A DNA stretch of 64,000 bases from an uncultured Cytophagia bacterium (GCA_964644845.1 CAZXXS010000056.1:1-64000); one strand, 5' to 3'; positions 2,564 through 64,000 are shown, counted from the stretch's first letter. Translations and numbers: made by a program. Notes: generated by a model from the letters alone, not told the origin.

Positions 2564-3194
2564 CGGTTTGTCCTCCTGTAGCCGAAGGCCGGCTCACCTC
2601 AAAGCCATTCAAACCGACTGGCAACGGGATGGGGAAGCAGTTGGGTTCGGGAATTGTCTTGTCCTGCGCACGTTGGGTGCATTCAGAGCCACGCCGGTGT
2701 GACGCACGTTTTGTCGCCGAATTTCAAAAACGCGTTGCTGATTGAGAGGACGAACGCGTCGACGAAACTTCGGCAACGATGTTGGTGGCGGGACAGCCAA
2801 AAACAAACAGTCGATGAGTCCACGGATAATGTACAACTCGAACAGTGAGAATTCAATGATTTCCGCAGCGGTGTAGCGGTTTGTGCTTCGTTTAGCGGGA
2901 TCTGTTTCGCCACGGCGGCATTCGTGTGCGAACAGCCACTGGTGCACGCGGTCGCCCAGTCGTACTCACTCTACAGTCTTCCTTACGCACTGATCTGTGT
3001 GGACGAGGCGAGGTTGTGGCAACGGTCGATGCCAGGATGTGGGAGCTTTGACGTCGAGACCGATCCCGTTGCCCTGAGACTGCCGGAGGCTGAGGGTTGC
3101 TTGCACCTGCTGATTCCCAAGCTGAGGTTTGGTGGGGGGAGCTTTCTGGCTCCTTCGGGCGTAAGACGGGACAGAAAGTCAAGAAGAAAACGTT

Positions 3195-17900: not shown

Positions 17901-19562
17901 GTGAGTCAGCCAGCGGGAGCAGCTCTCTACCGGGAAGCGAAGTACCGCGCTGTACGCTGGCTTTCGCAGCACGGTCTTTCGAACAAGGTTCGAATCAAAC
18001 TGGGCAGCGGTGAACCGGCCCAGAGGCAGGGCGGCTACTACGACCGTGAATCGGGTCTCCCGGCTGTGCTCACGACACGGTCTGCTCGAAAGCGCCTGGC
18101 GGAGCACCTCAACGATGCTGAACAGAAGGCAGCCGAGCGAGCCCGAACCCCTTTGCAGGGCATCCTGGCTGGAGGCGAGTTCCGCACTTTCCAGAGCAAC
18201 CTGGCGGAGCGTTTGCGTCACCTTTCCGTAGACGAGCGGGCACGCATTCTTTTTCACGTTCGGGAGAGCCAGCGCTTTCACGAAACAGAGCTTCGACGTG
18301 CTGCTGCGGCACTCCAAAAGACACGTCTGCGCTTCCTCGAACGGGGTTTGCAGGAACTGGAACTGCTGACCCTTGGTCGTAAGGACGAAGTCTACGACAG
18401 ATTTCTGGAATCTGTGCGTGAGCATTTCCGGCAGATCCTCTACGGCCGGCCGGAAGATGTGGTTGGTCTGCACGTGATTTCCTACTTTGTGTCCAGGGCC
18501 ATTCCGGCGCTGCGCGATCGACCGGTAGTGCGCCCGAGCCGCGAGGTGGGGCAAGGCAGAGAGCGAGAAATCGTGGGACGACTGGCTCAAACCCTGCCGC
18601 TGGCGAAACACGGCAGCTTGCTCCGAGCCATCGGCCACAATCGCGCACAAACGGTGATTCTGGGGGTCAACCAGCTCACCACTGGCCTTTTCCGGGCCTT
18701 GCAGCAGTTCGTGGAATCGGCGTCCAGTCCCGCGGAGGCCACCCAGATTCTGGAGGAGCGGGTTTTCCCGAATCTCCCTGTCAGAGACATCTTGAACACA
18801 CTCCGGCTCTACCACGATCCTCACCTAACCTGGGTGAGACGACTCGAAGCGGCCTTTCCGGCCGGGAACTCTGCCTTTGTGGCCCTGCGCGAAGACAACG
18901 ACGCCCTGGAAACCTTCATTCCGGCTTTGCAACGGGAACTGCTGCGGCAAAACGGGCTTCTGCTGGAGGGATTCCTGGAAAATGGGCGCGTGAAGCAAGC
19001 TGTGCTTCCGGCGCTTCGTCCGGACCTGGCCGTGCTGCTTCAGCGAAACCTTTTCAACACGGACCCAGCCGGTTTACTGGCAGAGGCCAGGAGCCCGGTG
19101 GACGCGTCCTGGCGCCGGAAGGTTGAAGCGATGCTGCGGATGCGGCAACGGGTCTTCGCCTGGCGGGCTGAGATTTGGAAGATCATCGAGGAGCCGATTC
19201 GTGGACAGGTGGAAAGCTTCGTCGGCCTTGCGCTTGCCATCAGCAAGCTGTCGGAGGGGAAATCCGTTGCGGATGTTCCGCTGGTGGCCGCCCCAGCGGA
19301 CGTTTACCGCCTCGGCTCGCAAATTGCTGGCTTGCTGCGCCGCACCACCGACGACGCCATGCGGCAGTTCTTGATTGCGGCCGTGCAGTACTTGACCCAC
19401 CTGCCAAAGACGGCCACCGAAGTTCCGCTGGACGTCATCCGGGCTCTGCGCGACGTGGAACGAATCGTAAAAATCGAGGGTCAGGCCCTGACAGAGGAGC
19501 AGTTGGCCAGGGTTCGATTCTACGTTCTCCAGATTGCGCGGCTTTGCAAGGAGAACGGGTAG
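13899..19562 (+). CDS. Giant multidomain protein: degenerate aminotransferase-like domain + class-I PLP aminotransferase domain + divergent PEPC-like domain
   Basis: Single 1887-codon ORF. The GTG start sits 7 nt after the SPFH stop. It contains a central class-I PLP aminotransferase domain, a degenerate copy at the N-terminus and a C-terminal domain related to phosphoenolpyruvate carboxylase (PEPC). Domain motifs are listed in the three sub-features. Confidence 0.6.
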   Translation: MVSQILTNSSADVDLFALRPFAAAKVSEISEATALSRVPPQERVNFHIGNPVQDARLILAYKTLLLGRANGEALDLSDLQTLAGDLDIEPRLTPFLELVLRSVDRSVTYLPRGGFSRHDPGPLAPLVRKWLLERQEEPLSYDLGVDSGRRELTFASGGRWEALRVLFATLNEHLVARPAVVLLWGLDLPRHLLTFENLRLVRLDASASVANALRESLESASTSPHFVLLGAVPPERERRRLRFLALERPVRIIETSNAPNHLSLAREAGLAELVLRILTPDFFLPQLGALSLAVVLGNSELLTAFEKMHFQLKGTPSGPEIELLAFALQHPDLFTRQPWEPAVWKAPTETVAASVTDATVPAAEKLALALSGYLAQVEAFATRASSFVDAVSQRVEERAQRVSQSGEAVFSRASRPFVGGRGHFDPLGHATFAELLEQLANRISDPEWERDLEAAFLAAFVAQHPEYEHEACFALSGSARTALSLLGFHAGVSDVVVPDLSWTYENCFPNVTAVPLSPELELDVAKIRRAVREKLATDANWKEHGAVVLNNPHNATGKAFREDAVEELLLWALENGVRVVDDLSYENVGPWDHLSGPRTARQIASNLVRTGRLPREALKNLVTVHSLSKTDCFAGARLAVVEILDRDLRQRFAAVAKTIRPNHLAILLAYLFYRNPPDRVRSYWLLRNRVLAERMTALEEAVRELPVERNPYGLRVVRPRASMYPRLEVQRLPSGVSLDWIATSLANRGIGLIPFSTFARTAQGFDLAHRSFRLTLGGGDSTTALQRKMRRTLIDLNRVLGDEESRYNLRVPRSTGVAVASVRSGHVEERWNEVEKHLAKRVDVHFRDLRRRFGKDFGHHQRAEFLESYVPKRLGHFRRMLDAELKVEELLRGTSEAQPRVILELLESELQTPTLSDRREAFRRRLFDRTVHPTQVYSVQVDVQARRLVHRVAEGQAFDARQLNTLAREMVREFLGENVPVTSKAEARELVCDLRTLVQTEDYLRFQFGEEEPLLLSFWGDWDGSTRPSGQGHRLSAAALLEDVRQLAALLRTATTLGVDLAVPTEVAEAVQRLEEHNQAFWRLLDDITDLTSQLEQRYLRVLPFDVRTGAFRRLGMRLRLARDPLAALWQHNDRLERRMLKLRRDRRASLEFYLKLDQALREVLARNLDRLEPLLKHPAGARVLARYRDVLRRFALTPRIHQRIIVAHDQFAIDTTVHNLVEINRLAVRYGVPGMIFGIQISMSTDPEALVALDRKIRAERLAAQRRHGGPQAPAVWVIPLFEDLDSVHNLDKYLDRVWDYAVQSRRAGQPAADRFSEIICEIFVAGSDLSQQVSQPAGAALYREAKYRAVRWLSQHGLSNKVRIKLGSGEPAQRQGGYYDRESGLPAVLTTRSARKRLAEHLNDAEQKAAERARTPLQGILAGGEFRTFQSNLAERLRHLSVDERARILFHVRESQRFHETELRRAAAALQKTRLRFLERGLQELELLTLGRKDEVYDRFLESVREHFRQILYGRPEDVVGLHVISYFVSRAIPALRDRPVVRPSREVGQGREREIVGRLAQTLPLAKHGSLLRAIGHNRAQTVILGVNQLTTGLFRALQQFVESASSPAEATQILEERVFPNLPVRDILNTLRLYHDPHLTWVRRLEAAFPAGNSAFVALREDNDALETFIPALQRELLRQNGLLLEGFLENGRVKQAVLPALRPDLAVLLQRNLFNTDPAGLLAEARSPVDASWRRKVEAMLRMRQRVFAWRAEIWKIIEEPIRGQVESFVGLALAISKLSEGKSVADVPLVAAPADVYRLGSQIAGLLRRTTDDAMRQFLIAAVQYLTHLPKTATEVPLDVIRALRDVERIVKIEGQALTEEQLARVRFYVLQIARLCKENG
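15250..16300 (+). other. Domain: class-I/II PLP-dependent aminotransferase domain with intact catalytic motifs
   Basis: Motifs found: ALSGSARTALSLLG; VVVPDLSWTYE; NNPHNATGKAF (NPxNPTG-like); VVDDLSYENV (Asp and Tyr); HSLSKTDCFAGARLAV (SxSK...GxRxG with the PLP lysine); and a C-terminal FRLTLGGG arginine. Confidence 0.65.
17500..19562 (+). other. Domain: phosphoenolpyruvate carboxylase (PEPC)-like C-terminal domain, divergent
   Basis: Blocks collinear with PEPC signatures:
- IIVAHDQF aligns with TAHPTE (His retained).
- IQISMSTDPEALVAL aligns with YVISMAxxxSDVLAV.
- VIPLFEDLDSVHN aligns with VxPLFETxxDLxN.
- EIFVAGSDLSQ aligns with VMxGYSDSxKD (Lys absent).
- RIKLGSGEPAQRQGG aligns with FHGRGGxxGRGG (arginines largely absent).
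- The protein ends in -ENG where PEPC ends in -NTG. Confidence 0.5.
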
Positions 19563-48559: not shown

Positions 48560-49393
48560 GAATCCGAGTCGATGGGGACCAGCGTCAAGTAGGAGCGGAA
48601 GCACTGTTTACGACATCTCCAGGTCTTGTCCGTTGTGCCTCTGTGAGGACAGCGGGAGACTTACGTTGGCAACAAGGTAAAACTTCCCTGACAAGGAAGC
48701 AAGGCGAAACTTGTGCTGGGCTGCGCCCGAAAGTCGAGTTTTCGGTTTACGTTGGGGATTCGCTCGCTGGAACGGGCGCTTGCTTTACGTGAGCAAAGAC
48801 AAAACCGGCGGGAAAACCAAAGGTTGAAGCTGAACGGGGTCGCCCGGAGGCGAAATCTCCGGGTCACGGACAAGAGCTGCTTGCTAAGAAAGGCCTTAGG
48901 CGTGGGGTCAGCAGCTCGTCGTGAGGAGCGTGTAGAGGGTGGGGCCTGACCCGAGGCTCCGCACACGAGGGAGATCTCCCGGAGGATCCCGGGCAAATTG
49001 AAAAGGAACGGGGAAATGGCCGGGTGGTTTCAAAAAGTGAACGAATTCTTGCCTGTGTGCGTGCTGTTGACTACATTCAGAACGGCAGGGCCCCCATTCG
49101 AAGACATGAACAGCGACACAGAAGGGGGAAATCGGGATGGCTGTTCGGGGCGTTTGGATCAACGATCGAACGCGGCGAAGAGCCACTCGAGGGCGTGTTT
49201 TTGCTTCCAGAGCAGGTCGAAGGAACGGCCTGTGCCCCTCTTTTCCGGGAAAGAAGCCCGCGGAGAATTTCTCCCGCAGGAAGCGGTGACTAACGGTAGT
49301 ATCCACACAAGGAAGGCTTGTGTTCGCTTGCATCAGGGCCTTCTGCAGATGCGTCGGCTACGGAAGAGCGAAAAACGCGCGGAGTTCCCGAGG

Positions 49394-50743
49394 ATGGGCG
49401 AATTGGGCCGTAAGAAGCGTGTCATGATCGTGGACGACGATCCAGACATGCGAGAGGTTCTGTACAAGAAGCTGAAAGACAAGGGGTACGTTGTCCTCAC
49501 CGCTGCGGATGCGGGTTCGGCTCTGCGGGTGTTGGAGTCCACGCCGGTGGATGTTGTGATCACGGACTTTAAGATGCCCGGTGCCAGCGGTGTTGAGCTC
49601 GTTCGCCACATCGGAGAGAATTTCCGGGACACGCTTACGATCATGATCACGGGTTACGCTTCGATCGAAGGGGCTGTCCAGGCGGTAAAAGCGGGTGCTG
49701 AAGAGTACCTGCCAAAGCCGTTTACTTACGAACAGCTTTACGCCGCCGTGGAGAAGGCTCTTAAGAAGCAGGAGATCCGCAAGGCACGAGAACCGGAGGT
49801 AGTTGCGCCCCAGGGGGAGTTCCACGGCTTGATCGGCGTGTCCCGACCGATGCAGGAAGTGTTCAAGGCGATCAAGAAGGCTGCGGCCACCAATGCCACC
49901 GTGCTGATTACCGGGGAAAGTGGTACGGGCAAGGAACTTGTAGCACGAGCCATCCACTACAGCAGCCCGCGCGCCTCCGCGCCATTTGTTCCGGTGAACT
50001 GTAGCGGTATCCCTGAAGGGCTGATCGAAAGCGAGCTGTTTGGGTTCGTGAAGGGTGCGTTCACTGGAGCGAACGAGACACGGGCTGGGTTTTTCCAAAC
50101 GGCAAACGGAGGCACGATCTTTTTGGACGAAATCAGCAGCACCTCGCTGTCCATGCAGGCGAAACTCCTCCGTGTTTTGCAGGACAACGAGGTCAGGATG
50201 GTTGGATCCAGCAAGACGAAGAAGGTGGACGTGCGCATTCTTGCTGCTACCAACAAGGACCTGCTGGAGCTGGTACGGAAGGGGTATTTTCGTGAGGATC
50301 TTTACTACCGGCTCAACGTGATTGCCATCGACCTACCGCCGCTGCGGGAAAGAGGGGAAGACATTCTCTTGATGGCCAAACACTTTGCGCAGAAATTTGC
50401 CAGTGAAGTCGGGAAGCCTGTGCCTGTGTTCAGCGACAGGGTTTTGGAAATCTTCCGCGACTACCCCTGGCCTGGAAATGTACGCGAGTTAGAAAATCTG
50501 GTTCGGCGGCTCATCGTGATGGTCGATCGGCCCGTGATCGATGTCCGGGATCTGCCGTCGCACATGCGTTTTGCCATGATTCCGGGCAGCAACTTGTTCC
50601 GCAGCCTGGCCTCTGTGGAGGCCGAGTACATTCGCAACGTGCTCTCCAGTGTGAACGGCAACAAAACGCGAGCGGCCCGCATTCTGGGCATCGATCGCAA
50701 GACCCTGCGCGAGAAGCTAAAGCGCTACGGGGAGGGCGCGTAG
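49394..50743 (+). CDS. Sigma-54-dependent (NtrC-family) response regulator: receiver + AAA+ activator + Fis-type HTH
   Basis: Receiver domain MIVDDDPDMREV...D...K. AAA+ sigma-54 interaction domain with GESGTGKE Walker A, the GAFTGA loop and RVLQDNEVRMVGSS. C-terminal HTH (KTRAARILGIDRKTLREKLKRYG). No adjacent histidine kinase. Confidence 0.85.
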   Translation: MGELGRKKRVMIVDDDPDMREVLYKKLKDKGYVVLTAADAGSALRVLESTPVDVVITDFKMPGASGVELVRHIGENFRDTLTIMITGYASIEGAVQAVKAGAEEYLPKPFTYEQLYAAVEKALKKQEIRKAREPEVVAPQGEFHGLIGVSRPMQEVFKAIKKAAATNATVLITGESGTGKELVARAIHYSSPRASAPFVPVNCSGIPEGLIESELFGFVKGAFTGANETRAGFFQTANGGTIFLDEISSTSLSMQAKLLRVLQDNEVRMVGSSKTKKVDVRILAATNKDLLELVRKGYFREDLYYRLNVIAIDLPPLRERGEDILLMAKHFAQKFASEVGKPVPVFSDRVLEIFRDYPWPGNVRELENLVRRLIVMVDRPVIDVRDLPSHMRFAMIPGSNLFRSLASVEAEYIRNVLSSVNGNKTRAARILGIDRKTLREKLKRYGEGA

Positions 50744-53175
50744 CTGAGACGGCCGCGTTCGGCGGCGTGGCGCAGCTCGAGTCGTCCCGGCAACCCAAAG
50801 GGCGGAGAATCGTCTCTTTGCTCCCAGTTCGCTCGTGAATCAAGAAGCAAAATCGCTACGCGTTTCTCCGTTCTTCCAGGAGAGGGAAAAATGGCGACAC
50901 GATGATGGCGCATTTCGGGCTGTGGATGTCCCCTCGAGTCAAACCAGCAACTGGAAGGCTGCGTTTGAATTGGGCTTTGTGAACTTTCCGATTGCGGCTC
51001 AACCTGCCAGGTTGACACGCCGACTGCCATCCTTTTCATGTTGCCTGTCCGCCACTGCGCAAGCTTCGAATTCAGTTCCCAGCTCGACTTACGACGGTTC
51101 AGGACCCTCCGCACCGAGCAGTAGTTTTTGGCCTCTGCGTGTGTTTCCGGCGGGTCCCTGCCACCGCAAATGAAAGTCTGTCGGGCTTGGTGCTTTTGGA
51201 TCGGGCCTGCGGTAGAAGCACTCTCGGGATCTGGATCACGCGGGCTTGCGAGACGATGTGGTAACTGAGCCTCGTTCACCTGCTCCCGACCGCCGTGACC
51301 TAAACTGTAGGGAGGGGGACTTTCCGACGCCGGGTGAATTTGCCAAAAGATCAACTTGCCAGTTTGACCTGCAAATCCCTGAGTAGAACCCCATTTGGCT
51401 GGTAGCAGCGCTGCGGAACACAGCCACGGCCTCTTTTTTGATGGATCTGGAACCCCTTTTCTGCGAAAGGACCCAAGCGTTCTGGTCCGCTCTTACTCCT
51501 GACGGCCGCTAACACACCTTCAGAGCGCGTGGCGTGTGCCTGGTTCAGATGGCGCTCCGTTCCTCCAGCTTCTACCTGGGTTGTGATTCCTGGCGCCGAT
51601 TTCGCAGCAGCCGCCGTCTCCAAGCAGACAGCAGCGGTGGTGCGAAATTCCCCAATCCGTTTCCCGAGTCTTGTTTTCTCTGCATGGTGGGATTGAACTG
51701 AAAAACGTACGAGTGGCCCACGCTGCTGTACACGAAGAGAATGGTGAAGTGTGCGACAAGGGCCGAGCCAAAGCAAACACGAATGTTCTGGCTGGTCGGC
51801 AACCTGGCAAAGCTGCGAGGTCACCTCTGGCTATCAAATTGACGCTGCAGTGAAAAGAGGCCGTGGTAAGAGAAACTTCAAGCGACCGAGGAGGATCCCC
51901 GCTACTTACTGCTTTGTAAGGTGGCTGCAGGTCCTTTTGCGGCTCCGGACGAGAGCCGGAGAGTTGCCTGCAAAGCCCGGTCGGTCCTTCGATTCATTCT
52001 TTCCTGCGGTGCTGGGCGGGAGAGATCCCCGGGGAGACGACGCAGCACCTTGGCTGGCATTCCCGCTGCCCGCTTTGATCCAGTGCCGACGGTTGAGCCT
52101 TTAAGAAGCTTGTGGAAAAATCCCAAACGTAGAAAACCACGGAGCCACAAAGGACACAGGGACGTGACAAACCTCGTTGAACAAGCGACTGTGTTGACGA
52201 GGCTTCCAAACCGTAGTTACCCTGCTGGACCTGTTGAGCAGTGCGGCAGGGTTCGGTCTTTGGTCTGTTTCGAGTAGCTTCGGTCAAGTTTCCGGGATGA
52301 GGTTCTGTGCGAGCGGTGCGCTCTTACAGGCATTCGCGTTCCTTCACCGTCCTCTTGTGGTATCCTCGGTGCCCTCTGCTCCGGGCCTCCGTGGTGAGAG
52401 GATGCTTTTTCCGAGGCCTCTTAAAAGGTTTGCGAAAAAGGCCAGAGCCACCGAGACCCAGAGCGCACGGGGGAAACACGCAGGGGGAACCAACGGGGTC
52501 TGCTGTTGCGCAACGAGAGAACGGTAATGCTGACCATTCCGGTCAGGGAGATGAGCACTTACGTAACACGGGGATTTCATTCGAGTTGTGTGGACCTTTC
52601 GAGTGCGGCATTAGCTACATGCCCCTGCGAAGCTGGCATGTAGCACTCGGACGGCGCATCTGGGCACGCAGTTCTCTGCGCGGCCTCTGTGCCCTCGGAG
52701 CCTCTGTGGTTTGTCTGCGCTTTTTCACAGGGCTCCTGAGCGCTACGCAGAACCCGGTTCATCTCGGCGTGTGTTTTTGAAAATAGGGGAATGGACCAGG
52801 CGGATTCGCTGTTCTTCGGGTGGCTGCACGTTTGGTGAAACGTGTTGCTGGATCCGGGAAGGTGCATGAGGGTGGGGCAAAATGCCCCGGTGAGGCATTT
52901 CGTACCGTACATTCTCGCCCCGTCCGGGCGTTTGTCAGCTGTTTTTGTGTTGGATGCGGAGGCGGTTGCAAAAGGCGCGTGTCGTCCTAACACTTTGTAT
53001 GTCGGGGAGTTAAGTGCGATGATCAAAGCTTCATGCTGGCAGGGTTGCTCGATGCTGGTGCCAATGGAATGGATGTTGCAGGTAGCGAACCGCCCAAACG
53101 GGAGAAAGTGCGCCCACGGGATCTAATGATGAATGGAGGGAGGAATTTTCGGCGCACAGTTGATGGGGAACGGCA

Positions 53176-53532
53176 TTGGCTGCAGCCCAGACGCGGACGG
53201 CGGTGCGCGGTGGGATGCAGATTCTGGAGTCAGAGCTCCTGTACTTCGCATTTCAGTGGCTCGTAGATTCGTTTCTTGCGCTGAGAGACAACGGAAAGGG
53301 GTGCTGCGATTTTCTGACTCGGGGCGGAAGCGGTGGTTTGCCGTCTCACGCGAGCGGGTTCGCGGTGGACCCGCGGGGGTCGTTCCTCATCATCCTGAAG
53401 TCCTTCCACACCTTTTCTTACCTGCACAGGATGTGCGTGTTGGGTCAGCTGAACACGGACGTGCTTGAGGGCCTGTCCGAATGCATGCTGACTGAGGGCG
53501 CTTTCGTGCAGCCTATCCAGTGCACGATGTGA
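53176..53532 (+). CDS. Possible small protein (about 105-118 aa) inside an otherwise gene-free region, hypothetical
   Basis: It is the only ORF in 50744-54116 whose third codon positions are strongly G/C-biased, like the genuine genes in the window. It has no recognisable family and no obvious ribosome-binding site. Confidence 0.2.
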   Translation: MAAAQTRTAVRGGMQILESELLYFAFQWLVDSFLALRDNGKGCCDFLTRGGSGGLPSHASGFAVDPRGSFLIILKSFHTFSYLHRMCVLGQLNTDVLEGLSECMLTEGAFVQPIQCTM

Positions 53533-54116
53533 GCACGGTTTGTCGCTCGATGCCGGTGCACACGGAATCCAGCTACAGAGTTTAGGACAAACTCTTCCTT
53601 GTCTGCAAAAGCCAACAGATCAAACAGTGAAGCTTTTGCAGGAATTTCTGCCGCCCGGTCTAAGGGAGTTTGGACACGACGGGTGAAGTCTGCAATTCGG
53701 GCGAGTGACCGCTAAAATGTGTTGCAGGAGGCGCAAGATTCGTAGTACACGGACATCCAAGCCAGGCAGCGAGTGGTCCTGGCAGCACACACTTGCTTTT
53801 TCGGCTCCTGTGGTCGGGCCGCTGTCGGACTGGTTTGCCGGTGCGGTAGCGGCTTTGTTGTAGATGGACGAAACCGGGGCTCGTGGCTGGCCCCTCGCAC
53901 GACGGTAGAAAAGAGGCAGAGACGGCACTCGAGAATGGCCGCAATTTCAACAAACTATCTGTGGTGGTGCTCTGTTGCCAGGTGCGAAAACTTGTTACGG
54001 TCGATTAATTCCGCACTCTGCGTGCTTGAAGTCTAAATAAGTCATGCACTTGTGCGGTTACTGGTCTCCGAGATGCCGTGAGAGGCTGCTGAGCCGAAAC
54101 CACCGGGACTGATAAA

Positions 54117-54860
54117 ATGACGACGAGCGAAGCGCAGGCTTTGATTACCGACAGGACCATCGAAGCCATGGCTCGTGGCTTCTACAGGGAAGCTGCCAGC
54201 TACGGCTTCAAGCAGGTTGATTACGTGAAGTTCGCAAATGCGCTTCTCGACCTGTCCATGCGCCAGAATGGCAAGGGCGAAGCGACGCTCCGCGCTGAGA
54301 ACCCGCGGCGTACTGCTGTGCCCGGAGCAACCAGGTTACCGCTGGTTGGTGAGCGCGTGAAGATCCGCGCGTTCGAAAGGAAGGATCTCGATCTGGTCCG
54401 GCGCTGGCTGGACGACCCGCACGGCCGCTACTTCTTGCTTTCGCGCACAACCGCGCGGTCTCTGGATCCCGAAGATTTGCTCACCCGCGACGACAGTGTG
54501 GTGGGTGTCATTACGCTCCTGGATGATGCACCGATTGGTCTTCTCGCTTACCTTGACGTGGACCGTGTTCAACGAAAAGCCGAGTTGCGCAAGCTGATCG
54601 GTGAACCGGCGCATCGGGGCAAGGGCCTGGCTCACGAGGCAACGCGGCTGTGGATCGATTACGGTCTCACATCTTTGCACCTGCGCAAGATCTACGTGAA
54701 TACCTTAGACACGAACATCCGCAACATCAAGCTGAACAGAGACCTGGGTTTCAAGGTTGAGGGGCTCCTGAGGGACGAATGTTTCTTTGATGGTCAGTAC
54801 CACGACATCATCCGAATGGCCCTCTGGGCAGACGAGGTTGGGGATCGGGGAGAAGCTTGA
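54117..54860 (+). CDS. GNAT-family N-acetyltransferase with about 85-aa N-terminal extension
   Basis: The C-terminal 160 aa carry a GNAT fold (VKIRAFERKDLDLVRRWL... with an acetyl-CoA-binding R/Q-x-x-G-x-G/A-like segment HRGKGLAHEA). It lies directly upstream of the megasynthase. Confidence 0.7.
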   Translation: MTTSEAQALITDRTIEAMARGFYREAASYGFKQVDYVKFANALLDLSMRQNGKGEATLRAENPRRTAVPGATRLPLVGERVKIRAFERKDLDLVRRWLDDPHGRYFLLSRTTARSLDPEDLLTRDDSVVGVITLLDDAPIGLLAYLDVDRVQRKAELRKLIGEPAHRGKGLAHEATRLWIDYGLTSLHLRKIYVNTLDTNIRNIKLNRDLGFKVEGLLRDECFFDGQYHDIIRMALWADEVGDRGEA

Positions 54861-55049
54861 TGGGGTGACGAATGGCCAAGCCAGATTGCTGACCGCGGTT
54901 TGTGCGCTGGGAGGCTGGGGCCGCAGACGGGGCGGGCCTTTTCGAGGTTCTTTGTAAAGCGGTCCAGTGCGGGTTGGGCGACCGCTTGAGTAGCGAAGGA
55001 CTGGCTGCAAACGACGGCGGCGGAAAACAACACGATGGAAGGTAGCCGG

Positions 55050-56760
55050 ATGAAACAAGCCAACGTTCGCACTCTGGTCGATTTGCTTCGCTGGAGAGCG
55101 GAGTCGCAGGGGGAGCATACGGCCTACATTTTTTTGCCCGACGGCGAGACTGAGGGCGAGCATGCCACATTCGCCCAGCTGGACGCTCAGGCGCGCCGGA
55201 TTGCCGTCGGTCTACGGCGACTCGGCCTGAGCGGCGAACGCGCCGTCTTGCTGTACCCCCCGGGACCGACCTACGTGGCTGCTTTTTTCGGCTGTCTGTA
55301 TGCGGGTGTGGTGGCTGTACCTGCCTACCCGCCGCGGAACAACCGCGGTCTGCCGCGCATCAAGTCGATCATTGAAGATTCCGGCGCTGCCATCGCCATG
55401 ACCTCCAGCGGCGTTGTGTCCCGCATGCGAAAGATGTTCGACACTCTGCCCGAGCTGGCTGTGACAGAGCTTTTCGTGTCTGACGAACTCGAAGAAGGGC
55501 TGGAGGAGGAGTGGGTCCCGCCGGAGATCGACGAAAACAGTCTTGCTTTTTTGCAGTACACCTCTGGCTCCACCGGAGCGCCGAAGGGTGTGATGCTGTC
55601 CCACGCCAACTTGCTGCACAACTCGGCGCTGATCCAGGAAGCGTTCGGGACGAGTGCCGACGATGTCGGTGTGATCTGGCTTCCGCCGTACCACGACATG
55701 GGCCTGATCGGCGGACTCCTGCATGTGGTGTACACAGGGGCCAGATGTGTGCTGATGCCTCCAGCAGCTTTCCTGCAGCGGCCAATGCGCTGGTTGGAAG
55801 CCATTTCCAACTACAGGGGCACCGTCAGTGGAGGACCCAACTTCGCGTACGAACTCGTGGCCAAGAAGGCTACGCAGGAAGAGATCGAAAAGCTTGACCT
55901 GAGCTCCTGGAAGGTCGCGTTCAACGGTGCGGAACCCGTGCGCGCCGAAACGCTGGAGTTTTTCAGCGAGAAGTTCAAGCCAGCTGGGTTTGATCCCGCG
56001 GCACACTACCCGGTGTACGGTCTTGCGGAAGCAACCCTAATCGTCACGGGAGGCGTGCAGGGCGACGGGGCAAAGGTCGTGGCGTTCGACAAGAAAGGGC
56101 TTGAGCAGCGGCGTGCAGTGGAAGCTTCCGACGAAGCAACGAGCAGAGAACTGGTCGGCTGCGGAGGAGCCCTCGGTGGCCAACGACTGGCGATCGTAGA
56201 CCCAGAGACTGGACGAGAATGCGGTCCTGGAGAGATCGGTGAGGTTTGGGTCCGCGGACCGAGTGTAGCCCAGGGGTACTGGGAACGTCCCGAGGAAACG
56301 GAGCGGACGTTTGGTGGCCGGATTGCAGAAACGGGTGAAGGTCCGTTCCTGCGCACGGGCGATCTGGGTTTTCTGCACGGTGGCCAACTTTTCATTGCGG
56401 GCAGGATCAAGGACCTGATCATCATTCGCGGCGTGAACTACTACCCGCAGGACCTGGAACTTACCTCGGAGCGCAGCCACCCGGCGCTGCGCGTCGGGAG
56501 CGCCGCCGCTTTTGCCATTGAGGTGGAGGGCGAAGAACAGCTGGTTGTCGCACAGGAGCTGGAATTTCGCCAGAAACCCGACGTGGCCGAAGTCACCGCG
56601 GCCATCCGGGAAGCCATCGTTGACGAACACGGGATTCTGCCGTACGCCGTTGTGCTCGTAAAGCCAGGGCGCATTCCCAAGACCTCAAGCGGCAAGATCC
56701 AGCGCTACGCCACCCGTCAGAAGTACCTGGAGGGAACACTGGAGACCGTGGGCGAGTGGC
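55050..56760 (+). other. Domain: fatty acyl-AMP ligase (FAAL) starter adenylation domain
   Basis: Adenylate-forming motifs are [11 protein letters not shown], an Asp-rich linker and [13 protein letters not shown]. Its position ahead of an ACP and a KS is the typical FAAL context. Confidence 0.7.
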
Positions 56761-59700
56761 GTGCCGACCAAGAACCCCGCGATGAGCCTGTCCCGCCGCG
56801 TGGCGAAGTGAGACCGGAAGAACCTGCGGAGAAAGCGCCCGTTCCCGCGCGGACGAAGGCGGAAATCGAAGCCTGGCTGGTTGAGCAGCTCTCTAAGCGG
56901 CTTAAGGTCCCGGCTAAACAGATCAACAGGAAAGAGCCGTTCGCCAGGTACGGGCTGGATTCGGTGCAGGCGATCGGTCTGGCGGGTGACCTGGAGGCCT
57001 GGTTGGGTCGACCGCTTTCCCCAACTCTGGCTTACGACTACCCGAATATCGAAGCTCTTGCAGCGTACCTGAGTGGCGAAGAAGCCAGTCCGACGGAAGC
57101 CTCATCCGAGGCCCCCTTGGAGAACGAACCCATTGCCGTTGTGGGCCTCAGCTGTCGTTTCCCGGGCGCGCCAAACGCCGACGCTTTCTGGAAGCTGCTG
57201 CGGGACGGTGTCGACGCGATTCGCGAGGTCCCGGCAGACCGCTGGGACGTGGATGAACTCTACGATCCGGATCCGGACGCGCCGGGCAAGATGATCACCC
57301 GCTGGGGTGGGTTCATCGACGACGTGGACAAATTCGACGCGTCCTTTTTCGGAATTTCACCACGCGAAGCAACGGAAATGGATCCGCAGCAACGACTGCT
57401 TCTCGAGGTGGCCTGGGAGGCCCTGGAGGCGGCCGGTGTGAATCCGGAAGAAGTGCGTGGCAGCCGGACCGGTGTCTTCGTGGGGGTAAGCAGTAACGAC
57501 TACAGCGTCATCCAGCACGGGGATTTGGAAAACGTAAGTGCCTACACGGGGACGGGAAACGCCTTCAGCATTGCCGCGAACCGCCTTTCGTACATGTTGG
57601 ACTTACGGGGTCCCAGCATGGCCATCGACACGGCGTGTTCGTCGTCGCTGGTCACGGTTCACCTGGCTACGCGCAGTTTGCGCGCTCACGAGACCGATCT
57701 GGCGATCGTCGGCGGTGTGAACCTGATGCTCTCTCCGGAGCTCACGGTTGCGTTGTCCCACGCTCGAATGATGTCGCCCGAGGGGCGCTGCAAAACGTTC
57801 GACGCGTCGGCCGACGGGTACGTGCGCGGCGAAGGCGTCGGTGTTGTGGTCTTGAAGCGTCTCTCAGATGCGGTGCGTGACAACGACAACATCCTGGCGG
57901 TCATCCGGGGGTCCGCTGTGAACCAGGATGGCCGCAGTAACGGACTTACCGCTCCCAACGGAGTGGCTCAGCAGGAGGTGATCCGCGCCGCACTGGCCGA
58001 CGCGCGTGTACAGCCTGAGGACGTGGACTACGTTGAGACGCACGGTACGGGCACGATTTTAGGCGACCCAATCGAGGTAAAATCGCTGGCCGAGGTGATG
58101 AAGGATCGGCCGAAAGAGAAACCATGCCTCATTGGCTCCGTTAAGACGAACATCGGGCATCTGGAAGCTGCAGCCGGAATCGCGGGTCTGATCAAGGTGG
58201 TGCTTTCCCTGCACCACGGCGAGATCCCGCCCCATTTGCATTTCAAACAAATCAATCCTCACATCCCGATTGATGAACTGCCGTTTGAAATCCCGACCAA
58301 GCGGCGTTCTTGGAAGACGAACGGTAAACCACGCCTGGCTGGAGTGAGCTCGTTTGGTTTTGGTGGTACGAACGCACACGTGGTTCTGGAGGAGGCTCCG
58401 AAGCGAGCACTTCCACCAAATGACCCAGAGCGTCCGCTGCACGTGCTCACCGCGTCGGCCAGGGATCCCGAGACCTTGCGAGAATTGGCCGGTCGGCTGG
58501 GTCGGTTCGCGGCCGAGCGTGAGGACGTGGCTCTGGCCGACATGGCGTACACGCTCAACACCGGTCGCGGTCATTTTGAGCAGCGCCTTGCCTTACGGGT
58601 TCGTGACAGGGAGCAAGTGGCGCAGGCGCTTCTGGATTTCGAGGCCGGGAAAGTAGCACCGGACGTGCGGGTGGGTAGTGTTTCCGGGAGTGCAGAGTCT
58701 CGGGTGGCTTTTCTGTTCACGGGCCAGGGTGCACAGTACGTCGGGATGGGCCGGGAGCTGTACGAGACGCAGCCAACGTTCAAGCGGGCGCTGGACCGCT
58801 GCAATGAGATCCTGGCGGACAAACTTGGCCAGCCTCTTCTTTCCGTGATTTTTGGGGAAACGGACGCCGGGGCGCTGCTCGACGAAACGGCATACACCCA
58901 GCCGGCGCTGTTCGCGATTGAGTACGGTTTGCTGGAGCTCTGGCGTTCCTGGGGGGTAGAACCCGAGTACGTGACAGGACACTCCATCGGCGAGTACGTT
59001 GCCGCCTTGGCAGCAGGGGTTTTCGACCTTGAGGACGCCCTGACACTCGTTTACCACCGGGGCCGGTTGATGCAGTCGCTGCCCAAAGACGGCGAAATGG
59101 CGGCTGTTTTTGCTGAGCTTGAGCTTGTCAAGGAGGTGTTGCGGCCTTACGCCGACGAGGTGGCTGTAGCTGGAGCGAACGGCCCGAGCAACACGGTGAT
59201 TTCGGGGCGGAAAGAAGTTGTCGAGGAGGTGCTGAAGCGTTTTGAAGCCCAAGGCGTCGAATTCCGGCGGCTGAGAGTGTCACACGCTTTTCACTCGCCG
59301 CTGATGGAGCCCATCCTGGACGAATTCGAACAGGTTGCTTCGGAGGTTCAGTACCGTCCGCCGCAGATCGGTTTGATCTCGAACGTGACGGGCAGATTGT
59401 TCGGCGATGGCGAGATCCCGAATGCGCGCTATTGGAGGCAGCACATTCGTCAGGCTGTTTTGTTTCACCCCGGAATGCAGGAACTGGCGAACCTGGGCTG
59501 CAACGTCTTCGTGGAACTGGGCCCGCACCCGACACTGATCGGGATGGCTCGACGTAGCCTGACCAATTTGGACGCGGTTTGGGTCGCCTCGCTAAACCGC
59601 AAGCAAAAGGACTGGGAGGTTCTGACCGACAGTTTGGCCCAGCTGTACGTGCGCGGTGTGGGGCTGGACTGGAAGGGATTCGACCGTGACTACCAACGGC

Positions 59701-62700
59701 GAAAGGTTCAGCTGCCGACTTACCCGTTTCGGCGACAGCGCTACTGGGTGGAGAGTGGACGTTCTCGGCGTACCGTGACGGCCGGGCAGGCAACGGGACA
59801 CCCACTGCTCGGCAAGCGCCAGGTGCCGCCTTTCGGAACCGGCATTTTCGCCACGGAGCTGGATGGCCAAAAGCTGCCCGTGTTGGCTCGGTTCCGCGTG
59901 GGCGACACTGCGGTTTTGCCCGCGTCAATCTACGCCGAGTTGGCTTTGGCAGGGACGGCCAGGCTTCTTCAGTCCGGGGAAAATCTGGAACTTTCCAGCC
60001 TTCGATTGCCGGAGGAGATCCAGCGGTTCGACCGCGGACGGATCGAGCTGATCACGACCGTTTCGTCGCTGGCTCAGGACGCCTACCAAGTGGAATTTTC
60101 GGCGCGGGGGGCTCCCGACAACGGTGGCGACGAGTGGGTGGTAGTGGCTGGCGCCACAGTCCGGAAGTTGCGCGCCAGGAGAAGGAATCGCGGCGAGCTC
60201 TCGCTGAAACGGCTCAAGGACAGACTCTCGCAGCGCGTTGCGGGCGCGGACGTGTACGCGAAGTTGAGCGACACGGGCGTGAACGTTGACGGGCCAGCGC
60301 GTCTGCTGGTGGAGCTTTGGGCCGGAAAGGCGGAGGCGCTTGGCAAACTGGCTCTTCCGCCTGAGATCGTTTCAGAAACGAATTCCTACGTTTTGCACCC
60401 TGTCGTCCTTGAGGCTTTGACGCACGTCTTCCTGCTGGCTGTGGGGTCGTTGACCAGCGCGCCGCACCGTGTCAGTGTGATCGAGGGGCTGCGGATTGTA
60501 AGCGAGATCCCCGAAAGACTGTACGCTTTCGCTTCCGTCAGCCCCGTAAACGGTTCTTTCGAAGGCATGGTGCAGGTGGTCGACGAGACCGGGCGCACGG
60601 TTCTGGAAGTGGACCGGCTGGGGGCGGAGCCGCTCACCGAGCAGGCACTCAAAACCCTCGCGGCTGCGGAGAAGTTGGTGGAGGCCGGGCCAGAAGCGGC
60701 GGAGCTGGATCGGCAAGCGCTACTGCAAAAAACGGCCACGGAAAGGCGCGAAGCGCTTCGTGGTTATTTGAGGAGTCGCCTGGCCTCGGTGTTGCGGTTG
60801 GCACCGGAACAGGTCGACGTCGACAAGCCAGTAACGACCTTTGGTCTTGACTCGATCATGGCCATCGAGTTGAAGGCCAGCGTGGACAGGGCTCTTGGTG
60901 TGCGTCTGCCGGTCGCTTCGCTAATCGAGGGCAAATCCATTTCTGAACTGGCGTCGGAGCTTGCGGATCTCCTGGAAGAAACGGCTTCTCCTTCCTCCGT
61001 CGCCGTTCGAGGTGAGGAGCAGGCCACTGGCGAATTTCCGCTCTCTTACGGACAGAAAGCCATGTGGGTGCAGCACCAGGTGTCGCCGGACAGCATTTTC
61101 AATCCCGTGTACGCGGTGCGCATCCCGGCCGAAATTGATGTGGCGCGTTTGCGGGACGCGTTTGCAGCGGTTGTGGAACGCCACCAGATGCTGCGTACCC
61201 GCTTCGAAGCTCGCGCCGGTGAGCCCGTTCAGATCATCGAGCCGAGCGGAAGGGTGGCGTTTGAGCACGAGCAGCTTCCCCCCGGCGACGAAGAGGCACT
61301 GCGGTCGCGGTTGTTGGAAGAGGCTCACAGGGGTTTTGATCTCGAAAAGGGGCCGCTGTTTCGCGTGCACCTTTTCTCCCGCGGTCCAAAGGAGCACACG
61401 CTTCTGCTGGCAGCGCACCACATTGTTGTGGATCTCTGGTCCCTTGCGGTGATCACCGACGAGGTCGGTCGGTTGTACGGGGCGCCGGACGGGGCAGGAA
61501 TTCTGCCACCCCTCGAGGCGCAGTACGTGGACTACATTCGTTGGCACCGCGAGCTACTGGGGGGAGTGGAGGGCGAGAAGCTGTGGTTGTACTGGCAGGA
61601 GCGTCTGGCAGGCGACATTCCACTGCTGGACTTGCCTACGGATTTCCCGCGTCCGCGGGTGCAGACGTTCAACGGAGCGGTGGAGACGGTCGGACTTGGC
61701 CGCGACCTGACTCGTCAGCTGAAGAAGCTGAGCGACGAGCACGGTGTAACGCTGTTCATGACGCTTTTGGCGGCCTACAAGGTGCTGCTGCACCGGTACA
61801 CGGGGCAAGAGGATCTTGTCGTCGGTACACCGAGCACAGGGCGTACGCGTCCTGAGTTTGCAGGCACGGTCGGTTACTTTGTCAACCCTGTGGCGCTTCG
61901 GAGCGAGGTAACCGACACTGCGCGGTTCGTGGACTTGATGCAAGAGCTCAAGCACGTGGTGGCAGGCGCGCTTGAGCACCAGGACTACCCAATTGCCCTG
62001 CTGGTGGAGAAGTTGGCGCCCAATCGTGACGCAGGCCGCACGCCGTTGTTCCAGACGATGTTCATCCTTCAGCGAGCGCACCTGCTGTACGACCAGGGGT
62101 TGTCTTCGTTTGCGCTGGGCACGTCCGGCGTAAAGATGCAACTCGGCGAGATTCCCCTGGAATCGGTCTCCGTTGAGCAACGAATTGCGCCTTTTGACCT
62201 GACGCTGATGACTGCGGAGGTAGGGGAGGAGCTCGGTGCTTCGCTAACGTACAACACGGACCTCTTCACGCGGGCGACCGTGAGGCGGATGCTGGGTCAC
62301 TACCGTCGGCTCCTGGAAGCGGCGGTCGAGAACCCGCGTTGGCGTGTCGGCGCCATGCCCATGCTCACTGACGACGAGAAGGCGCTTGTGCAGGGCTGGG
62401 CGACACCGCGCGTTGAAAAGACCGGGGGGTTCAGACCGGTGCACGAGCTTTTCTCCGAGCGGGCGAAAACTCACCCGGACAGGCTGGCGGTCGTGTCGAG
62501 AAAAGGTGAATTGACGTACGCTGAGCTGGATGCAAAGGCCAACCGCCTGGCCCGTTACCTGGAGGAGCGTGGCGTTGGTCCGGAAAAAATCGTCGGGATC
62601 GCTCTGGAGCGCTCGGTAGAGACCGTGGTGGCTGTTCTGGCGGTGCTGAAGGCCGGCGCGGCTTACTTGCCTCTGGACCCATCGTACCCATCTGAGCGGC

Positions 62701-64000
62701 TCCGCTACATGCTGGAGGATGCCGGCGTCGACTTGTTGATCACCGAGGAACGCTTGCTGGGACGTCTCCCGGCGTTCAGCGGCGCGGTTGTTCGCCTGGA
62801 CAGCGATTGGCCCGAAATCGCTTTGCTGCCTGACGCCGATCTTGTGACCGCGGTGCACCCCAGAAACCTCGCGTACGTGATCTACACTTCAGGTTCCACG
62901 GGAAGGCCCAAGGGAGTGATGCTGGAGCACCGCGGCCTGAGCAACACGATTGACGTTCACCGGGAACGCTACGAGATCTTCGACGAAAGCCGAGTGCTCC
63001 AGTTCGCGTCGTTCAGTTTCGACGCGTCTGTTTCGGAAATCTTCACGGCCCTGACCTCGGGGTCGACGCTCTACGTGGCGGACGGCGACATGCTGCTCAG
63101 CAGCCGCGACTTGCTGGACGCCCTGCGTAACTGGCGGATCACCAACGTGACGTTGCCGCCGTCAGTCCTCGCAGTCTTGCCGCAGCAAGATCTGCCGGAT
63201 CTCCGCGTGGTGGTTTCCGCGGGTGAGGCCTGTCCACCGGACGTGGCGGAGCGCTGGAGTAAGGGCCGGAAATTCATCAACGCGTACGGACCAACGGAAG
63301 CGACGATTGGGGTCACCGTGTTTGACTGGGATGGCCGGTCCGGTCTCGCGAACCTGCCAATCGGCAAGCCAACGAGGGGTTCGCGGATCTACATCTTGAG
63401 CCCCTCTTTGGAACCGGTTCCTGCGATGGTTCCGGGCGAGATTTACATCGGTGGCGTAGGCGTTGCACGGGGTTACCTTGGACGGCCGGAGCTCACCGCT
63501 GAGAAATTCATTCCGGATGCTTTTTCCGGTGAAGAGGGAGCTCGGCTCTACCGGACTGGCGACCTGGCGCGTTTCCTGCCCGACGGAAACATCGAATTCA
63601 TCGGCCGGGTGGACCACCAGGTGAAAGTGCGCGGGTTCCGGATTGAACTCGGCGAAGTGGAAGCGGCCATGGCTGCAGAGCCAGAGGTGGCAGAGGCGAT
63701 TGCCCTTGCACTCGACGACGGTTCGGGCGGGAAGCGTTTGGTTGGCTTTGTTGTCCCCGAAAACGGAGGCGAAGTTCAGGGGCCAGAGCTTCGAGCCCGG
63801 TTGCAGAAGTTGCTCCCCGACTACATGGTGCCTGCGTCGATTCTGGTGCTCGACGCTTTCCCGCTGACGCCCAACGGCAAAGTGGATCGCAAGGCCCTGG
63901 CACGGCTCGCAAAAGAGCAGACTGTGCTACGCACCGAATTTGTGGACGCGAAATCGGAAGTCGAGAAGCAAATTGCGGCCATTTGGCGGGAGGTGCTGAG
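55050..64000 (+). CDS. Hybrid PKS-NRPS megasynthase, 5' part: FAAL-ACP-KS-AT-DH(like)-ACP-C-A-(PCP...); continues beyond the window
   Basis: A single reading frame is open from the ATG at 55050 to the window end; GGAAGG lies 8 nt upstream and an alternative ATG is at 55035. It encodes a fatty-acyl-AMP ligase (FAAL)-initiated hybrid polyketide/non-ribosomal-peptide synthetase with, in order, an acyl-carrier protein (ACP), a ketosynthase (KS), an acyltransferase (AT), a dehydratase (DH)-like domain, a second ACP, a condensation (C) domain, an adenylation (A) domain and the start of a peptidyl-carrier protein (PCP) in the last 40 nt. Domain motifs are listed in the individual sub-features. Confidence 0.9.
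57120..59700 (+). other. Domains: ketosynthase (57120-58400) and malonyl-specific acyltransferase (58690-59700)
   Basis: KS: DTACSSSL / HGTGT / [12 protein letters not shown]: [20 protein letters not shown] and HAFHSPLM (the HAFH malonyl signature). Confidence 0.8.
59780..60650 (+). other. Domain: PKS dehydratase-like (HPLLG ... [11 protein letters not shown]) with no ketoreductase in the module
   Basis: The N-terminal HxxxGxxxxP motif is intact ([11 protein letters not shown]). The second motif has Glu where the canonical Asp sits (EALTH versus DxxxQ/H). No Rossmann/KR motif lies between the AT and the ACP. Confidence 0.55.
61030..63950 (+). other. Domains: NRPS condensation (61030-62350) and adenylation (62420-63950)
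   Basis: The C domain has HHIVVDLWS, a HHxxxDG variant. The A domain has A3 [12 protein letters not shown]4 FDASVSE, A5 [10 protein letters not shown]7 YRTGDLAR and A8 [20 protein letters not shown]. Confidence 0.8.

Follow-up and report, generated by a model that had tools for sequence, protein, structure and literature searches.

A FAAL-primed hybrid PKS-NRPS megasynthase and its sulfotransferase-bearing gene cluster in a probable member of the Calditrichota

The megasynthase gene and its domains

The right-hand end of a 64,000-nucleotide stretch of DNA from an uncultured Cytophagia bacterium (GCA_964644845.1 CAZXXS010000056.1:1-64000; the whole stretch is called the window here) is taken up by one very large gene on the + strand. 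Its product is a hybrid of a polyketide synthase (PKS) with a nonribosomal peptide synthetase (NRPS), referred to below as the megasynthase, and begins with a fatty acyl-AMP ligase (FAAL). A previous reading of the window, made from the sequence only, had described it as a single open reading frame (ORF) of more than 2980 amino acids (aa), and the frame bears this out: frame 3 of the + strand is free of stops from 54990 to the window end at 64000 (3003 codons), a distance over which about 96 stops would be expected from the regional base composition (probability of none about 6e-43). The two remaining + frames contain 97 and 70 stops, and no rival ORF overlapping 55200-64000 is longer than 266 aa. 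The candidate starts are the ATG at 55035, preferred by the gene callers in matching contigs, and the ATG at 55050, where the sequence-only reading began; all residue numbers of the megasynthase domains are counted from M55035. From this codon the window (55035..64000, + strand) holds the first 2988 of 3082 codons, and the stop is predicted at about 64283. The gene does reach the window end, as the sequence-only reading had said, but it is not much longer, since its stop lies only some 283 nt beyond 64000.

The public contigs that match the window do so at 99.2-99.9 % identity over the shared part (blastn). The full length was taken from L001, L002 and L007 (99.2-99.6 % identical); the protein measures 3082 aa on the two contigs that extend far enough, and the ORF is full-length and uninterrupted in L001 and L002 and open up to the contig end in L003 and L004. 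Synonymous and non-synonymous codon differences number 31 and 7 between the window and L001, 11 and 2 for L002, and 19 and 2 for L003; the 31:7 ratio is the signature of purifying selection on the megasynthase. Truncation or pseudogenisation, the outcome named beforehand as fatal to the proposal, was therefore not found. Past the window the protein ends in a complete peptidyl carrier protein (PCP; FFDLGGHS) and a basic tail, with no release domain.

Pfam and NCBIfam matches give the domain order FAAL-ACP-KS-AT-DH-like-ACP-C-A-PCP(start), in which the PCP is only begun inside the window. The same order had been proposed by the sequence-only reading, and a motif search recovered every catalytic motif that it cited. 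All domains lie on the + strand. The FAAL (55050..56747, residues 6-571) matches the Pfam AMP-binding domain and the AMP-dom_DIP2-like C-terminal domain. It is followed by a first acyl carrier protein (ACP1, 56874..57071, residues 614-679; PP-binding), whose GLDS motif carries Ser643, and by a ketosynthase (KS, 57126..58244, residues 698-1070; ketoacyl-synt N and C) with the Cys-His-His triad in DTACSSS, HGTGT and NIGH. The acyltransferase (AT, 58710..59648, residues 1226-1538; Acyl_transf_1) shows GHSIGE and HAFH, the combination of malonyl-type enzymes. A dehydratase-like (DH-like) domain (59799..60650, residues 1589-1872; PKS_DH_N 41 bits, PS-DH 62 bits) ends 33 residues before the second carrier, ACP2 (60747..60980, residues 1905-1982; PP-binding/ACP_SdgA_C; GLDS as GLDSI, Ser1940). 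After 16 more residues begins the condensation (C) domain (61029..62384, residues 1999-2450; Pfam Condensation, E 1.5e-100) with HHIVVDLWS, and the adenylation (A) domain follows (62451..63881, residues 2473-2949; AMP-binding, AMP-binding_C and TIGR01733), with motifs A3, A4, A5, A7 and A8 and the A10 Lys (PNGKVDR) inside the window. The PCP starts at residue 2979 (63969..64000, about 10 residues in the window); its PP-binding match spans 2979-3042 in the full-length protein of L001, and its GGHS serine, which lies beyond the window, is seen in the near-identical L007 copy only. No ketoreductase (KR), enoylreductase (ER), aminotransferase, methyltransferase or thioesterase (TE) domain was found in the megasynthase with Pfam or NCBIfam.

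The essential catalytic residues of the FAAL, KS, AT, both ACPs, C and A domains are all present on motif search. The PKS part has what a type I extension module needs (the Cys-His-His triad of the KS, the Ser of GHSxG in the AT and the Ser of the ACP), and the NRPS part shows the HHxxxD of the C domain, the A-domain core motifs, the A10 Lys and, through L007, the PCP Ser of an elongation module.

The ligase has an adenylate-forming fold with the A3 motif, and its best single-domain matches in NCBIfam are FAAL families (E 5e-152, under the curated whole-protein cut-offs). The best 15 matches in the Protein Data Bank (PDB) are FAALs throughout, and the first fatty acyl-CoA ligase (FACL; 3G7S) appears only at E 3e-35. 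The top match, 7R7E/F/G (E 2e-190), is collinear (query 13-576 vs chain 9-572); 564 residues are aligned in each with no net difference in length, which bears only indirectly on the FAAL-specific insertion that blocks use of CoA. Lower ranks are held by LpFAAL of Legionella (3KXW, 7e-136), FadD32/23/28 and EcFAAL. A putative cognate acceptor, the GLDS-bearing ACP1, is fused straight after the ligase. 7R7E-G is the FAAL domain of a PKS of Picosynechococcus sp. PCC 7002 (PMC11837247).

The DH-like domain and the probable loss of the reducing loop

The DH-like domain of the megasynthase retains HPLLGxxxxP but reads DGP in place of YGP and ExxxH (LEALTH) in place of DxxxQ. The full set expected of an active PKS dehydratase (HxxxGxxxxP, GYxYGPxF, DxxxQ/H and a KR partner) is therefore not present. 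Domain matches and alignment place it in a series with two related clusters. The first megasynthase of L008 has DH, ER and KR, all with strong scores and with canonical HPLLG, YGP and HPALLDACFQ; that of L061 has a DH-like domain, in which the Asp is replaced by Asn and YGP is absent, and a weaker ER, with no match to a KR; the window has the degenerate DH only. Judging from this series, the DH-like domain is most likely what remains of a reducing loop such as L008 still has in full. The extension unit would stay at the 3-oxo level because no KR is present and hence no β-hydroxyl to dehydrate; most likely it remains 3-oxoacyl unless a KR acts in trans. The three proteins also differ in the AT motif (HAFH in the window, VASH and YAFH in the relatives), and in L008 the A domain of module 1 contains an inserted methyltransferase.

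Genes downstream of the megasynthase

The genes that follow were taken from near-identical contigs, including the 143-kb JBPNVZ010000054.1, and thus lie outside the window; 32 kb were seen, to about 22 kb past the start of the megasynthase. The sequence-only reading had asked for such downstream sequence, and the contigs, more than 99 % identical, carry further PKS and NRPS modules in separate genes. The first is a gene for a protein of 610 aa (L007 10001-11833; P0032) that matches the choline/carnitine acyltransferase family PF00755 and is called cAT-like here. Next comes PKS2 (1541 aa; KS-AT-KR-ACP), which begins with its KS and has no loading domain. Its acidic N-terminus is complementary to the basic C-terminus of the megasynthase.

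NRPS2 (L007 16617-21314, 1565 aa) consists of C-A-PCP, a second carrier-like domain (GGDE) and a sulfotransferase (ST) domain. The carrier-like domain, at residues ~1150-1225 between the PCP and the ST, has its phosphopantetheine Ser replaced (FFAKGGDEEKAARL) and is thus a pseudo-carrier that presumably serves as a structural spacer. The ST of NRPS2 (L007 20.4-21.3 kb) aligns over its whole length with the CurM ST (4GBM, E 4e-62) and with 4GOX (E 2e-61), which we take to be the ST of the olefin synthase (OLS), and conserves the PRSGST loop that binds 3'-phosphoadenosine 5'-phosphosulfate (PAPS) and the PPE Glu. Downstream of NRPS2 lies NRPS3 (3003 aa), which was read for its first 158 codons; its listed domains are C-A-PCP-ST-C-A and a further three Pfam entries. 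In this arrangement PKS2 ends in an ACP, and the STs come after NRPS PCPs and are followed by the protein end or by a C domain; no TE, whether next to an ST or elsewhere, and no KR-ACP-ST-TE terminus was found in the 32 kb. Counted from these domains, the assembly line has two or more PKS extensions, four or more modules for amino acids and two or more ST domains. A scan of metagenome contigs with the N-terminus of NRPS3 gave 49 generic NRPS loci with a best-segment identity of at most 47 % and no cluster end; it returned neither the species of the window nor the contig of L008.

The cAT-like protein has the fold of its family. It matches PF00755 with 137 bits (E 7e-40), and the profile of its own family finds choline and carnitine acetyltransferases (ChAT/CrAT) at E about 1e-33. 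The AF2 model (pLDDT 92.7, pTM 0.92) superimposes in Foldseek on CrAT, ChAT, COT and CPT2 with TM scores of 0.71-0.77 over ~620 columns at 16-20 % identity (E 6e-30), and so models as a full-length, two-lobe carnitine/choline acyltransferase fold. The catalytic His of the motif E-H-x-x-x-(D/E)-G, however, is absent. The family has N-F-[NST]-[AT]-Y-[LIV]-D-G-N-x-M-M-R instead, in which the D/E-G after the catalytic position is kept. All 121 of 121 close members, and nearly all of the 98 representatives (50 % clustering), have N, S or T (or the invariant F next to it) where the His would be; EH(A/S)A occurs only in the remotest matches, P0287 and P0292. In the family alignment R317, R325 and H551 are invariant and S-H-P at 524-526 is nearly so. 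This His-less clade counts 144 representatives (50 % clusters) at E <= 1e-30 among 1.84 billion sequences, and in two of its members, P0151 and P0218, an EntS-like MFS_3 exporter is joined to the cAT-like domain in one protein. The searched literature contained no bacterial gene of the cAT family in an NRPS/PKS cluster, and its reports that combine carnitine O-acyltransferase and NRPS are fungal.

Layout in related clusters

Genomic context was looked up for 11 cAT-like homologues, whose identities are given relative to the copy of L006, a contig of the Calditrichota described below. In the first arrangement (type A: megasynthase, cAT, PKS2) are found P0032 (86 %) and P0042, P0056 and P0045 (51-52 %); the cAT-fold gene directly follows the megasynthase in five of five type-A loci. 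The order megasynthase-cAT-PKS2 is thereby also seen in L008, L061 and L067 (42-50 % protein identity); L008 and L061 go on with NRPS genes, and the contig of L067 stops inside PKS2. The second arrangement (type B; P0076, P0082 and P0098, 46-49 %) belongs to KSB1. Its loci (L009/L010, L062 and L063) each combine a large NRPS, which ends in a TE or, in L063, in a C domain, with genes for an MFS_3 exporter, MbtH, a type II TE and a PPTase, a tandem pair of cAT-like genes and one or two sulfotransferases that stand alone, and a TonB-dependent receptor adjoins two of the loci. The last four homologues (P0116, P0131, P0147 and P0150, 41-45 %) sit in unrelated neighbourhoods, namely one glycosyltransferase/polysaccharide locus and otherwise housekeeping genes or IS elements; a universal link of cAT-like proteins with biosynthetic gene clusters was rejected on their account.

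Because these distant homologues lie outside biosynthetic clusters, the cAT-like family does not appear to be intrinsically tied to NRPS chemistry. The distribution of the genes suggests that one subclade of the His-less family was co-opted as an accessory that is conserved in NRPS clusters with sulfotransferases. The role of the cAT-like protein is best guessed to be coupled to export or off-loading, since it is conserved with the clusters and is fused to EntS-like MFS exporters elsewhere.

The specificity codes of the A domains divide in two. That of NRPS2 is DAENIGAIT in L007, L008 and L061 alike, and those of module 1 are DASTVAAIG, DAVIVAAIY and DAETVAGIC, respectively. Because the former is constant and the latter differs from cluster to cluster, the residue after the statine-like unit that PKS2 is predicted to make (see below) seems to be fixed and position 1 variable.

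Relationship to known systems

The combination of parts looks like that of an OLS/CurM-type system, with FAAL, PKS and ST, into which NRPS modules have been built. Olefin synthase has been described as FAAL-ACP-KS-AT-KR-ACP plus ST-TE (PMC11837247). In Picosynechococcus/Synechococcus sp. PCC 7002 the Ols protein thus reads FAAL-ACP-KS-AT-KR-ACP-ST-TE, and shares with the megasynthase a fused FAAL-ACP for loading and a single malonyl-extending KS-AT module thereafter. Unlike Ols, module 1 of the cluster lacks a KR, C-A-PCP modules are built in, no ST-TE was seen and the STs stand after NRPS carriers; the expected product is a peptide conjugate, whereas that of Ols is an alkene. In CurM of curacin A an "activating" ST lies in an ACP-ST-TE arrangement for off-loading; the ST of the cluster aligns over the whole CurM ST, but is internal or terminal in an NRPS, after a PCP and a Ser-less carrier, with no adjacent TE seen.

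By logic of assembly the megasynthase resembles MycA of mycosubtilin/iturin, where one protein activates a fatty acid, lengthens it by a single KS step and, through a C domain, couples it to the first amino acid. The starters of this family are defined by an aminotransferase domain, which converts the β-keto to a β-amino group. The megasynthase has no such domain between ACP2 and C, and carries a probable DH relic instead. Membership of the iturin/mycosubtilin type was rejected for this lack of an aminotransferase domain (Pfam). The iturin/mycosubtilin-like logic put forward by the sequence-only reading thus stands for the fatty acid, the single KS extension and the C-A-PCP module, and fails in the aminotransferase and in its nearest solved parts, which are of OLS/CurM type and not from Bacillus. 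Because there is no aminotransferase domain, the fatty acid would form an N-acyl (amide) cap and not a β-amino fatty acid in a ring.

Similar by description are the cyanobacterial FAAL-primed pathways of puwainaphycin, microginin, hapalosin and jamaicamide, in which a FAAL or FAAL-ACP feeds PKS and NRPS modules and an amino acid is extended by KS-AT-KR to a statine-like unit (lipopeptide and hybrid pathways of this kind are reviewed in PMC11837247). The cluster departs from them in its Calditrichota host, in the CurM-type ST within NRPS modules and in the His-less cAT-fold gene. An NRPS with a built-in sulfotransferase domain is itself known from the Planktothrix cyanopeptolin synthetase Oci, where it belongs to the glyceric-acid starter unit (PMC2533009). 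The likeness of the two STs is again one of description, and those of the cluster differ in that they follow elongation modules and are CurM/OLS-like. As for the cAT-like protein, the two-lobe fold is common to CrAT, ChAT, COT and CPT2 and to the cAT domains of fungal PKSs. It differs from the former four in its replaced catalytic His, its 16-20 % identity and its C-terminal ~130 aa, which cannot be aligned by sequence, and its gene stands alone, save for some fusions with an MFS exporter. In sum, this type of system is known, but three of its features are both conserved and unusual: the CurM/OLS-type ST embedded in NRPSs, the His-less cAT and the decayed reducing loop of module 1.

Predicted pathway and alternative explanations

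These observations together make it probable, at about 0.8, that the ORF encodes the megasynthase that initiates a FAAL-primed PKS-NRPS line of several genes in a probable member of the Calditrichota. The FAAL would adenylate a free fatty acid and load it onto ACP1 without coenzyme A, after which KS and AT would attach one malonyl unit on ACP2 to give 3-oxoacyl-ACP2, and the C domain would use this chain to N-acylate the amino acid held by the PCP. For the nature of that amino acid, the A domain gives the nine-residue code DASTVAAIG by alignment to a fragment of GrsA-PheA (internal consistency of the numbering checked). The Tyr code of Stachelhaus et al. (1999) reportedly reads DASTVAAVCK; the code of the window together with the A10 Lys agrees with it at 8 of 10 positions. 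Selection of Tyr by the A domain of module 1 is offered as a lead from this comparison of codes.

The acyl-aminoacyl chain would then be handed to the KS of PKS2, with the basic and acidic tails of the two proteins facing each other, and PKS2 would add malonate and reduce it to give a statine-like γ-amino-β-hydroxy unit. At least three more amino acids would be added, and an ST of CurM/OLS type would sulfonate a carrier-bound hydroxyl with PAPS, the sulfate being either retained or used as a leaving group. The product would be a fatty-acylated and probably sulfated peptide-polyketide. A more specific proposal is decidedly tentative and, in our estimate, rather unlikely to be right as a whole: that the Calditrichota/KSB1 clusters follow a logic of assembly not known to have been described, in which CurM-type STs in the NRPS modules sulfonate a carrier-bound hydroxyl (for example the β-OH of the statine or the phenol of Tyr), with the sulfate kept or serving as leaving group in a DH-less elimination or cyclisation, and that the His-less cAT, with R317, R325 and H551, is a new type of off-loading or export partner. 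As regards the earlier claims, the FAAL-primed, lipopeptide-type hybrid is borne out by the domain string together with the downstream PKS and NRPS genes, and "uncharacterised" by a literature search that yielded no characterised equivalent; within the literature searched, no PKS-NRPS product of Calditrichota/Caldithrix is described.

Several points weigh against this picture of an initiation megasynthase. The DH-like domain retains its His, with Glu in place of Asp, so that DH activity is possible; His/Glu pairs are catalytically competent in FabZ-type dehydratases. The predictions of chain length, of Tyr and of the 3-oxo group rest on motifs and background knowledge. Distant cAT-like homologues (L011, L064, L065 and L066, 41-45 %) are found outside biosynthetic clusters, and in the part of the cluster that was reached there is no terminal release domain, transporter or gene for PAPS supply. 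The downstream genes come from assemblies other than that of the window, with 99.2-99.6 % identity in the part they have in common, and since the window and L001 have unlike left flanks, they may differ in gene content too.

Four other explanations were weighed, each with far less credit. The 3082-aa protein could work alone as a lipoamino-acid synthase that makes N-(3-oxoacyl)-Tyr or a similar compound, to be off-loaded by the cAT-like protein (for example to an alcohol), with the downstream genes separate. The megasynthase is indeed a separate gene that ends in a PCP, a cAT-fold gene directly follows it in all five type-A loci, and cAT domains of fungal PKSs release their products by esterification. 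This explanation is nevertheless quite improbable: PKS2 opens directly with its KS and lacks a loading domain, the basic and acidic tails are complementary, the cAT-like family lacks the catalytic His, and the order megasynthase-cAT-PKS is kept in the species of the window and in three contigs at 42-50 % identity, two of which also carry the NRPS genes. Slightly less improbable is that the chemistry is as proposed but serves Calditrichota/KSB1 to make an amphiphilic siderophore or a lipid of the envelope, and not a metabolite of antibiotic type. Such a role would agree with the conservation of the cluster type across Calditrichota and KSB1, with the EntS-like MFS_3 exporter, MbtH and TonB-dependent receptor that adjoin the KSB1 versions, and with the match of the upstream GNAT protein (described below) to Acetyltransf_8, a family of hydroxamate-forming acyltransferases. 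It sits badly with the lack of N-hydroxylase, catechol or other chelator genes in the 32 kb seen, with spermidine acetyltransferase as the best named match of the GNAT, and with a module-1 A code that varies among relatives, which is typical rather of diversifying secondary metabolites.

The two remaining explanations are very improbable. Given that the nearest solved relatives of the FAAL and ST are parts of the PCC 7002 PKS (7R7E, 4GOX) and the CurM ST, the pathway might be of olefin-synthase/CurM type, in which FAAL, PKS and ST make a terminal alkene by sulfonation and decarboxylative elimination. No ACP-ST-TE tridomain is found in the 32 kb seen, however, the STs follow NRPS carriers, at least four C-A modules are interleaved and module 1 has no KR to provide a β-hydroxyl. 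An olefin-synthase function was rejected on the missing KR of module 1, the absence of an ST-TE from the part seen and the interleaved NRPS modules. Equally, the stepwise loss of the reducing loop (intact in L008, degenerate DH and ER in L061, degenerate DH only in the window, so that KR and ER are gone) and the Ser-less carrier of NRPS2 might mark a cluster that is silent or decaying and about to end as pseudogenes. The 9-kb ORF, however, is uninterrupted in the window, intact in two full-length assemblies and open in two more, its codon differences are 31 synonymous to 7 non-synonymous, and none of the essential catalytic residues in its FAAL, KS, AT, ACP, C and A domains is missing.

As an initiation megasynthase of a multi-gene line, the protein is of interest in several respects. 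FAAL-primed hybrid clusters are common as a class in metagenome-assembled genomes (MAGs), and the case made here goes no further than a well-supported prediction. Calditrichota and KSB1 have barely been explored for natural products, and a conserved, intact cluster type present in several genomes is resolved here to the level of domains. With FAAL loading and an activating sulfotransferase, it brings the olefin-synthase/CurM toolbox into peptide assembly; should the ST act on a carrier-bound peptide intermediate, the chemistry of sulfate activation would extend to NRPSs. The His-less cAT clade is an uncharacterised family for which the clusters provide a genomic handle on function. The predicted product, an N-acyl, Tyr-derived, statine-like and sulfated peptide, could resemble a protease inhibitor or a surfactant.

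Host, upstream flank and border of the shared block

The closest sequence outside the species, found with the DH-ACP-C segment as query, is P0001, a partial Calditrichaeota protein at 87 %; the other matches are generic NRPSs and PKSs, and the search missed the indexed 3082-aa orthologue. In the genome contig scan the sole relative is L006, a 7.4-kb contig of a Calditrichota MAG with a cAT-like N-terminus that is 89 % identical. The host is thus a probable Calditrichota bacterium. The rest of the window holds genes for a GH38 mannosidase, an alpha-L-fucosidase, GHL10-like proteins, TonB-dependent receptors, a protein with a T9SS tail and a tricorn-type protease. The Calditrichota MAG relatives and the GH38, fucosidase, TonB-dependent receptor and T9SS-tail genes agree with the glycan-scavenging background within the FCB superphylum that the sequence-only reading had assumed.

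Directly upstream of the megasynthase lies a gene for a GNAT N-acetyltransferase (54117..54860, +; 247 aa), with matches to Acetyltransf_3/_8/_1/_4 and, best in NCBIfam, to spermidine N1-acetyltransferase (E 3.5e-24, under the cut-off). The protein is identical on five public contigs (L001-L005) and lies inside the block that they share with the window; it is possibly a cluster member with a tailoring or self-protecting function. Further upstream, the stretch 51354-54117 is nearly without convincing coding sequence over ~2.7 kb. The only gene called in it is a conserved ORF of 118 aa (53176..53532, +), called in L001-L004 and without a Pfam or NCBIfam match. For a leader or regulatory region of a bacterial cluster this would be unusually long.

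The block shared with L001 ends on the left at 52415 (L001 8299; strand not applicable), as located by blastn and alignment of the breakpoint, and this position is the candidate left border of the cluster-bearing block. To its left the two flanks are unrelated: genes for GH38, MFS and a sigma-54 response regulator lie in the window, and genes for a PAS sensor, a rotamase and a PHP protein in L001. The mismatches between the window and L001 (99.2 % identical) are concentrated near the border, with 53 of 98 in the initial 1 kb that the two have in common, and a further two contigs stop at 52572 and 52941, within 530 bp of 52415. These features suggest either a strain-variable insertion border or an assembly chimera at 52415. 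No tRNA or Rfam family was found at the border in 45-56 kb.

The sigma-54-dependent response regulator (48998-50743, +; Response_reg, Sigma54_activat and HTH_8) is the last recognisable gene before the non-coding stretch and is missing from the flank of L001. A loose TGGCAT-N5-CTGC element is found at ~52053-52067. Elsewhere in the window, an ORF of 1887 aa (13899-19562, +), some ~1500 residues of which are not assigned to a family, has as its sole Pfam match a class I/II aminotransferase segment at residues 451-779.

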